Shown here one piece after another: positions 21,570 to 30,299 of a DNA stretch of 64,000 nt; positions within the stretch are counted from its first letter, which is position 1, and every line of letters starts with the position of its first letter. The translations under genes and the position numbers were made by a program. The notes beneath the pieces were generated by a model, which made no database searches, was not told where the DNA came from, and was given only the letters and a program-made list of their open reading frames with translations. The DNA is from a virus. Location: UHGV virus genome UHGV-1351408; one strand, 5' to 3'.

Positions 21570-29585
<8,016 letters not shown>

Positions 29586-29586
<1 letters not shown>

Positions 29587-29825
29587 TACATTTTTCCTGC
29601 TCTTCTAAGTTCGTTGTAAGCAATTTCCTCTTTATACGACCTCTGAATTTCAAGAAATTGTCTCAATGATAATAAATCAGAGAATGTCATAGCAAAGAGT
29701 TGGTCAAGTGTTTCTTTACACCCTTCCATACCATAAATAGCAAGCACAAATTTCATCTCGTCTGCTTCTTCATAGGTTGCCTCTACAGCAGCATCAGTCA
29801 GTGGTGTCTGTAGAGTGTTACCCAT
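29586..29825 (-). CDS. tail assembly chaperone, frameshift-extension ORF (gpT/E'-like)
   Basis: 79-aa ORF; its frame is the -1 frame of 29828-30226 and is open back to the slippery site. Confidence 0.45.
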
Positions 29826-29827
29826 GT

Positions 29828-30226
29828 TTACTGAGAAGTTAGGCTTTTGAAAATGCTTGCTTCGAAAAAACTTCCGAAATTTGCCTCCAGCGCAAATGCT
29901 AAGTAATCAATAAATTCACCATAGTTTGCTTGGAAGTATGTATCAATATTAAGTGGGAAGTCATCAACAGTTGCCCCTTGAAATAATAGGGTAGCCATTT
30001 CTTCAAGGTTAATTTCTTCAATTCTGTCAAAACAAGCTTCAACAAGTTCTTTAAATGGAACCATTGGAGCTTCTTTCTTATCTTTATCAGTCAGACTTGA
30101 TAGCATCTGTGCAAAAGTTGGAACAACAATTTTACCCAACTTCATAGACATCTTAATACCATCTCTTGCCCCAAGCAGAACGATATTTACTTTCTTACCA
30201 TTAATTACTCTAGATTCTGTTTTCAT
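29828..30226 (-). CDS. tail assembly chaperone (gpG/E-like)
   Basis: 132 aa; directly upstream of tape measure; contains the slippery heptamer near its 3' end. Confidence 0.5.
   Translation of the reverse strand: MKTESRVINGKKVNIVLLGARDGIKMSMKLGKIVVPTFAQMLSSLTDKDKKEAPMVPFKELVEACFDRIEEINLEEMATLLFQGATVDDFPLNIDTYFQANYGEFIDYLAFALEANFGSFFEASIFKSLTSQ
29864..29870 (-). other. candidate -1 programmed frameshift heptamer T_TTT_TTC
   Basis: In zero-frame phase of the upstream ORF; -1 frame has no stop from here into 29586-29825 (checked codon by codon). Confidence 0.45.
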
Positions 30227-30246: not shown

Positions 30247-30288
30247 AAAAGAAACAAAAAAGGGGAAGACCTTTTAAAGTCTCCCCCT
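30247..30288 (-). terminator. rho-independent terminator after tube gene
   Basis: Hairpin GGGGAAGAC/GTCTCCCC; T-run on the minus strand. Confidence 0.55.
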
Positions 30289-30299
30289 TATAGGATTTA

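Follow-up and report, generated by a model that had tools for sequence, protein, structure and literature searches.

The chaperone region described here lies in the tail module of a phage genome of which one continuous stretch, 64,000 nucleotides (nt) in length and hereafter called the window, was analyzed. This region is 99.6% identical to that of phage ECP2307, and more than 200 records of Escherichia, Salmonella, and Shigella phages match it at 95% identity or above; the source phage is, on the grounds of sequence, a Felixounavirus (a Felix O1-like myovirus). On the minus strand, the genes follow the order sheath, tube, G, T, and tape measure. Two reading frames (G and T) are thus situated between the tube gene and the tape measure gene, which is the arrangement that characterizes pairs of the lambda G/GT type. 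The genes located 3′ of the tape measure gene encode Dit-like, baseplate plug, and hub proteins, as judged from family matches. Coordinates of the features considered below are collected in Table 1.

The product of ORF G matches the PF21822 family (Phage_TAC_15) across residues 9–124 with a score of 71.5 bits (E 1.2e-19), in excess of the curated gathering cut-off of 22 bits for this family. The family matches for G, T, the tape measure protein, the tube, and the sheath bear out the assignment of this locus to a tail module that had been made in the initial annotation. ORF G begins at ATG 30226, where it has its own Shine-Dalgarno sequence (AAGGA, −6.1 kcal/mol), and ends at TAA 29830–29828. 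The start codon of the tape measure gene overlaps the stop codon of the GT frame (TAATG). Searching the PDB with the sequence of the GT fusion defined below returned nothing meaningful (best E = 0.62), and the single-sequence AlphaFold model of G was poor (pLDDT 42.6).

A strong terminator-like hairpin, composed of 13 pairs followed by a T-run, is located at 30260–30289 (minus strand) between the stop of the tube gene (30300) and the start of G (30226). In Citrobacter phage Michonne, a ‘terminator’ is annotated at the matching position. The hairpin probably acts as a leaky terminator, so that the chaperone and tape measure genes are expressed less than the sheath and tube genes.

Table 1. Positions of genes and sequence elements in and around the chaperone region (window coordinates).
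Feature	Position	Strand	Basis or remark
Tail sheath gene, 450 aa	30762..32114	-	phrog_205 tail sheath, E 1.5e-124; DUF3383
Tail tube gene, 148 aa	30300..30746	-	PF11681; phrog_280
ORF G, tail assembly chaperone, zero-frame product, 132 aa	29828..30226	-	PF21822 Phage_TAC_15; phrog_1613, E 8e-49
GGAGG, possible internal Shine-Dalgarno-like stimulator	29884..29888	-	13 nt upstream of T_TTT_TTC
Second in-phase heptamer A_AAT_TTC, strain-specific	29876..29882	-	12 nt upstream of T_TTT_TTC
Block of suppressed synonymous variation, nearly invariant	29831..29878	-	Slip site and two-frame stretch
Slippery heptamer T_TTT_TTC, G codons Phe120-Phe121	29864..29870	-	Direct reading and translation
−1 extension (T part), 92 codons	29586..29864	-	Translation; C-terminal 79 aa = phrog_4963
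Downstream ORF, 79 aa	29586..29825	-	phrog_4963 tail assembly chaperone, E 2.8e-55
ATG of the separately annotated 79-aa ORF	29823..29825	-	2 nt past the G stop
Tape measure protein gene, 742 aa	27358..29586	-	PF20155; phrog_4036, 1530 bits

An in-phase heptamer and an open −1 frame

The initial annotation had placed a slippery heptamer in the phase of ORF G, and direct reading and translation agree on this point. The TTT codon of the heptamer starts at 29869, which is 357 nt after the ATG and in phase with it, as (30226 − 29869)/3 is 119 exactly. The zero-frame reading at the heptamer is AG[T TTT TTC] GAA, that is, X_XXY_YYZ in phase, and the heptamer is positioned 12 codons before the stop of G. 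Past the slip, the −1 reading is CGA AGC AAG CAT TTT CAA AAG CCT AAC TTC TCA GTA AAC ATG GGT, and this frame runs through ATG 29825 to a stop at 29588–29586. Translation gives 92 codons from the heptamer through the downstream ORF; the openness of the −1 frame had likewise been claimed at the outset, and all of the coordinates given then are correct. The predicted GT fusion (30226..29864 joined to 29864..29586) has 213 residues, and the junction peptide predicted for a slip at T_TTT_TTC is ANFGSFFRSKHFQKPNF (...EANFGSFF then RSKHFQK...).

How often such a configuration arises by chance was gauged on 90 long ORFs of the window, a crude set totaling 18,009 codons. These contain 69 in-phase X_XXY_YYZ heptamers, and a −1 extension of more than 40 codons follows three of them, two of which are at the chaperone slip site (T_TTT_TTC and the A_AAT_TTC element discussed below). 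Of the 12 copies of TTTTTTC that the window has on its two strands, only the one at the slip site is in phase within a long ORF. Toward its end, G overlaps an open −1 frame for ∼26 codons, a stretch in which chance alone would produce ∼0.1 heptamers of any kind; the evidence of a single genome against chance is therefore only suggestive, and conservation in relatives is decisive.

The third heptamer with a long −1 extension is an in-phase A_AAG_GGG (26570–26576, minus strand), three codons short of where the Dit-like gene (27358–26561) stops. The −1 frame that starts from it spans the whole plug gene (26561–26220) and has 116 codons. Rather than a frameshift site, this heptamer is most simply taken as a Shine-Dalgarno sequence (−7.8 kcal/mol) for the downstream gene, which overlaps its neighbor at ATGA.

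Conservation, two-frame constraint, and start signals of the T part

The comparison with relatives covered 13 lineages and more than 50 loci, including 36 IMG/VR contigs. The named phages were ekra, Mushroom, and Felix O1 (Felixounavirus), Michonne and Sf16 (Mooglevirus), SUSP2 (Suspvirus), Yersinia phage P778, Hafnia phage SarahDanielle, phiEa104 (Kolesnikvirus), Pectobacterium phage Wc4-1, and, among the Vequintavirinae, A5-4, CR8, and Av-05. The sequence NNT TTT TTC is present in phase at an invariant Phe-Phe motif in all of the lineages (13/13), and every locus has a −1 extension, between 79 and 124 codons in length, that ends at or just before the start of the tape measure gene. The identity of G to its counterpart in the window falls as low as 26–28% in the Vequintavirinae, with the slip site and the relation of the frames still kept. 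Judged by this comparison, the heptamer is not a chance match. The invariance of T_TTT_TTC across the Ounavirinae and Vequintavirinae lineages examined is a mildly new point, and it provides a rule for PF21822 chaperones as a whole, in both subfamilies, by which the slip would take place at an invariant NNT TTT TTC encoding Phe-Phe.

The heptamer could in principle be a by-product of the Phe-Phe motif, with the open −1 frame a coincidence. Phe120 and Phe121 are invariant in the G family, so some T-rich sequence is to be expected at this position. However, many codings are available for Phe-Phe preceded by Ser or Cys, and NNT TTT TTC is used in every lineage, even where synonymous change has reached saturation elsewhere in the gene. 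A by-product also leaves aside the −1 frame, which is always open for the 79–124 codons given above and encodes a conserved domain matching phrog_4963. We find this explanation hardly credible.

Synonymous variation is suppressed where the two frames overlap. Among 32 unique sequences from Felixounavirus, Suspvirus, and Mooglevirus, the block listed in Table 1 has a single variable site in ∼48 nt. Third-position variability is 0.78 over most of G but 0.16 from the slip site to its stop (Fisher p = 3e-7). Such a block is, as read from these alignments, what a slip site and an adjoining sequence read in two frames would be expected to leave.

The start signals available to the T part were assessed in the same lineages. 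Past the slip site, the −1 frame in 10 lineages out of 13 is free of ATG for 37–63 codons or over its whole length, and in seven of these 10 the first GTG or TTG is likewise found only 23–63 codons in. An alignment across the 13 lineages places the first start codon of those lineages beyond conserved residues of the T part; therefore, in those lineages, the T part can be reached only from G.

These data bear on the possibility that G and T are separate proteins, with the 79-aa T produced by termination-reinitiation at ATG 29825 and the heptamer irrelevant. The stop of G and this ATG are 2 nt apart in the window (TAAACATG), with a similar arrangement in Suspvirus and P778, and an ATG directly after the G stop in Felixounavirus and Suspvirus would permit some independent synthesis of T; most GenBank records also show two separate chaperone ORFs. 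Nevertheless, no Shine-Dalgarno sequence precedes ATG 29825, for which the best anti-Shine-Dalgarno duplex is −0.1 kcal/mol, as compared with −4.6 to −12.4 kcal/mol for 16 neighboring genes. Moreover, in Kolesnikvirus, Hafnia phage, Wc4-1, Vequintavirinae, and IMG/VR loci, no start codon is found close to where G ends, yet the T frame of those lineages is still open and conserved from the heptamer on. Re-initiation further leaves unexplained both a heptamer that is invariant down to 26% identity and the suppression of synonymous change upstream of the G stop. Production of T by this route alone is thus very unlikely.

Alternatively, the fusion could be generated by transcriptional slippage, with RNA polymerase inserting one U too many in the run of six T and the edited mRNA then being read into T. 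The site is a homopolymer run, and slippage of this kind is used in other systems (PMC5009743) and has been put forward by Sharma et al. as one possible reason for the scarcity of 7-nt runs, AAAAAAA and UUUUUUU being under-represented in E. coli genes (PMC4066793). In every locus examined, however, the run numbers six T, no more and no fewer, between a G and a C. Efficient slippage by bacterial RNA polymerase is known from runs of about 8–9 or more. The site additionally obeys the ribosomal X_XXY_YYZ rule in phase, including the 3′ C of the efficient class, and we consider a transcriptional origin of the fusion highly improbable.

Proposed frameshift and candidate stimulators

Tail assembly chaperone pairs of the lambda G/GT type are reportedly produced by a programmed −1 frameshift, a view said to go back to Xu, Hendrix and Duda in 2004. 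As the chaperone locus shows a slippery heptamer in the proper phase, an open −1 frame, conservation of both, a T part that lacks start signals of its own, and the two-frame constraint, we infer that a programmed −1 slip at T_TTT_TTC very probably yields a minor GT fusion beside the major product G. Ribosomes would start at ATG 30226, and most of them would end at TAA 29830–29828 to give the 132-aa G. In a minority, the two Phe-tRNAs on TTT TTC would slip back by one base and re-pair with TTT TTT, after which the slipped ribosomes would read the −1 frame to 29588–29586. The 213-aa GT so produced would have 92 new residues in place of the last 11 of G. If the pair works as in lambda, slipping would fix the ratio of G to GT, with the G part serving to coat the tape measure protein and the T part to recruit the tube protein, and the virion would contain neither G nor GT.

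The efficiency of the slip is probably a few percent or less. In E. coli, U_UU.U_UU.C belongs to the efficient H_HH.U_UU.Y class, which shifts at >0.1% without stimulators, and this heptamer is under-represented in E. coli genes (PMC4066793). The literature on Felix O1-like and rV5-like phages yielded annotation-level statements only, and a search of it for experimental detection of the fusion found none.

Stimulators of the dnaX/IS type consist of a Shine-Dalgarno-like element 9–14 nt upstream and/or a hairpin or pseudoknot 5–9 nt downstream. The GGAGG upstream of T_TTT_TTC fits the 9–14 nt spacing quoted for Shine-Dalgarno-like stimulators of −1 frameshifting (PMC5009743), and GGAGG is present at equal spacing in six of 11 lineages, Av-05 and Wc4-1 among them. 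In Hafnia phage SarahDanielle, the codons CTG GAG GCA of the window are replaced by TTA GAA GCA, and the motif is lost. The element, with its dnaX-like spacing, is a possible stimulator and a second mildly new point.

On the downstream side, a conserved stimulatory structure, which the initial annotation had suggested looking for, was not found: the consensus fold of eight Ounavirinae lineages is −0.48 kcal/mol and gives no support for a family-wide structure. In the window, the 94 nt after the heptamer fold at −24.5 kcal/mol (z = −2.4). The nearest sizeable hairpin starts ∼38 nt past the heptamer, which is too far for a classical stimulator, and we rejected a downstream hairpin as a family-wide stimulator on this ground and on that of the consensus fold.

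The hairpin at ∼29771–29826 (minus strand; core CUCUACAG...CUGUAGAG) begins at the ATG of the 79-aa ORF. It is kept in Felixounavirus, Mooglevirus, and Suspvirus only, and not in the Hafnia phage, Kolesnikvirus, or Wc4-1; apparent compensating changes are seen in Mooglevirus and Suspvirus (CCCCG/CGGGG and CCCCAU/AUGGGG). This hairpin might mask the ATG of the 79-aa ORF, or it might be unrelated.

The strain represented by the window also has a second in-phase heptamer, A_AAT_TTC, from which the −1 frame is open as well, for 96 codons. It arises through a silent AAC-to-AAT difference, the codon being AAC in Felix O1, ekra, Mushroom, and Michonne, and is found in one of the 36 IMG/VR loci. Its presence in this strain is a further mildly new point. 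A more elaborate signal for the window strain, in which the GGAGG stimulator is combined with tandem slip sites and A_AAT_TTC serves as a second heptamer of the efficient class, is conceivable but on balance unlikely. If true, the tandem sites would raise the ratio of GT to G and give rise to two fusion isoforms (..NFGSFFRSK.. and ..NFRKFFRSK..).

Relation to known systems and to existing records

The closest counterparts are phages in which the frameshift has already been noted. In Salmonella phage Mushroom (KP143762), where the region is 97.9% identical, a CDS in two pieces spans 641 nt, equal in extent to 29586–30226, and Citrobacter phage Michonne (KT001916), which shares the genes and the heptamer with the window, is annotated with ‘ribosomal slippage’. 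The same frameshift is mentioned in the genome announcement of Citrobacter phage Moogle (PMC4319497). The window shows no essential difference from these three phages, to which its strain adds the non-conserved A_AAT_TTC; the annotations are themselves predictions. The chaperone frameshift is therefore known and annotated in near-identical phages and is an ordinary feature. The finding opens no new biological question, and its main value is for annotation, the correct model being a G product together with a frameshifted GT fusion.

The lambda G/GT system resembles the one in the window in that two chaperone frames separate the major tail gene from the tape measure gene, an in-phase heptamer a few codons short of the G stop is the site of a −1 slip, and the fusion ends at the start of the tape measure gene. 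In lambda, a G:GT ratio of ∼30:1 is needed for tail assembly (PMC5009743). The two systems differ in that lambda has a non-contractile tail and uses G_GGA_AAG, five codons before the stop, followed by a T part of 144 codons, whereas the window has T_TTT_TTC, 12 codons before the stop, followed by a T part of 92 codons, and the chaperone belongs to a different Pfam family (PF21822). When a 10-sequence G profile was compared with lambda gpG by hhalign, the probability was 1.6% (E 0.03) and the alignment covered 27 N-terminal columns. The resemblance to lambda G/GT and P2 E/E′ that was originally proposed thus holds for architecture and mechanism, but homology in sequence to lambda gpG was not detected with hhalign.

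Phage P2 is similar to the window in its contractile tail and in the position of its E/E+E′ chaperone pair just upstream of the tape measure gene T. Its annotated −1 frameshift is on T_TTT_TTG, which is unlike the heptamer of the window only in the last base. It differs in the smaller E product, encoded by a 276-nt gene, the G of the window being a member of PF21822.

The Vequintavirinae (rV5-like phages; CR8, Av-05, and A5-4) share with the window the PF21822 family, the gene order, and an in-phase T_TTT_TTC, here at an NYGCFF motif, and their G homologues match PF21822 with scores of 76.9 and 106.6 bits. By contrast, their G is only 26–28% identical, the two frames overlap for 30–34 codons, the T part has 117–124 codons, and 52–66 nt separate the T stop from the start of the tape measure gene; the frameshift is unannotated in their records.

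Most of the ∼260 Felix O1-like GenBank records show two separate ORFs labeled ‘chaperone’ or ‘hypothetical’, and some, such as those of phiEa104 and Wc4-1, are without the T part. A truncated T ORF, or none, is annotated 3′ of G in phiEa104 (1766–2003 of the locus compared) and Wc4-1 (1617–1853), and the same is the case in the records of A5-4, CR8, and Av-05. In phiEa104, Wc4-1, and the Vequintavirinae, a frameshift at T_TTT_TTC would give a full-length GT, and these look like missed annotations.
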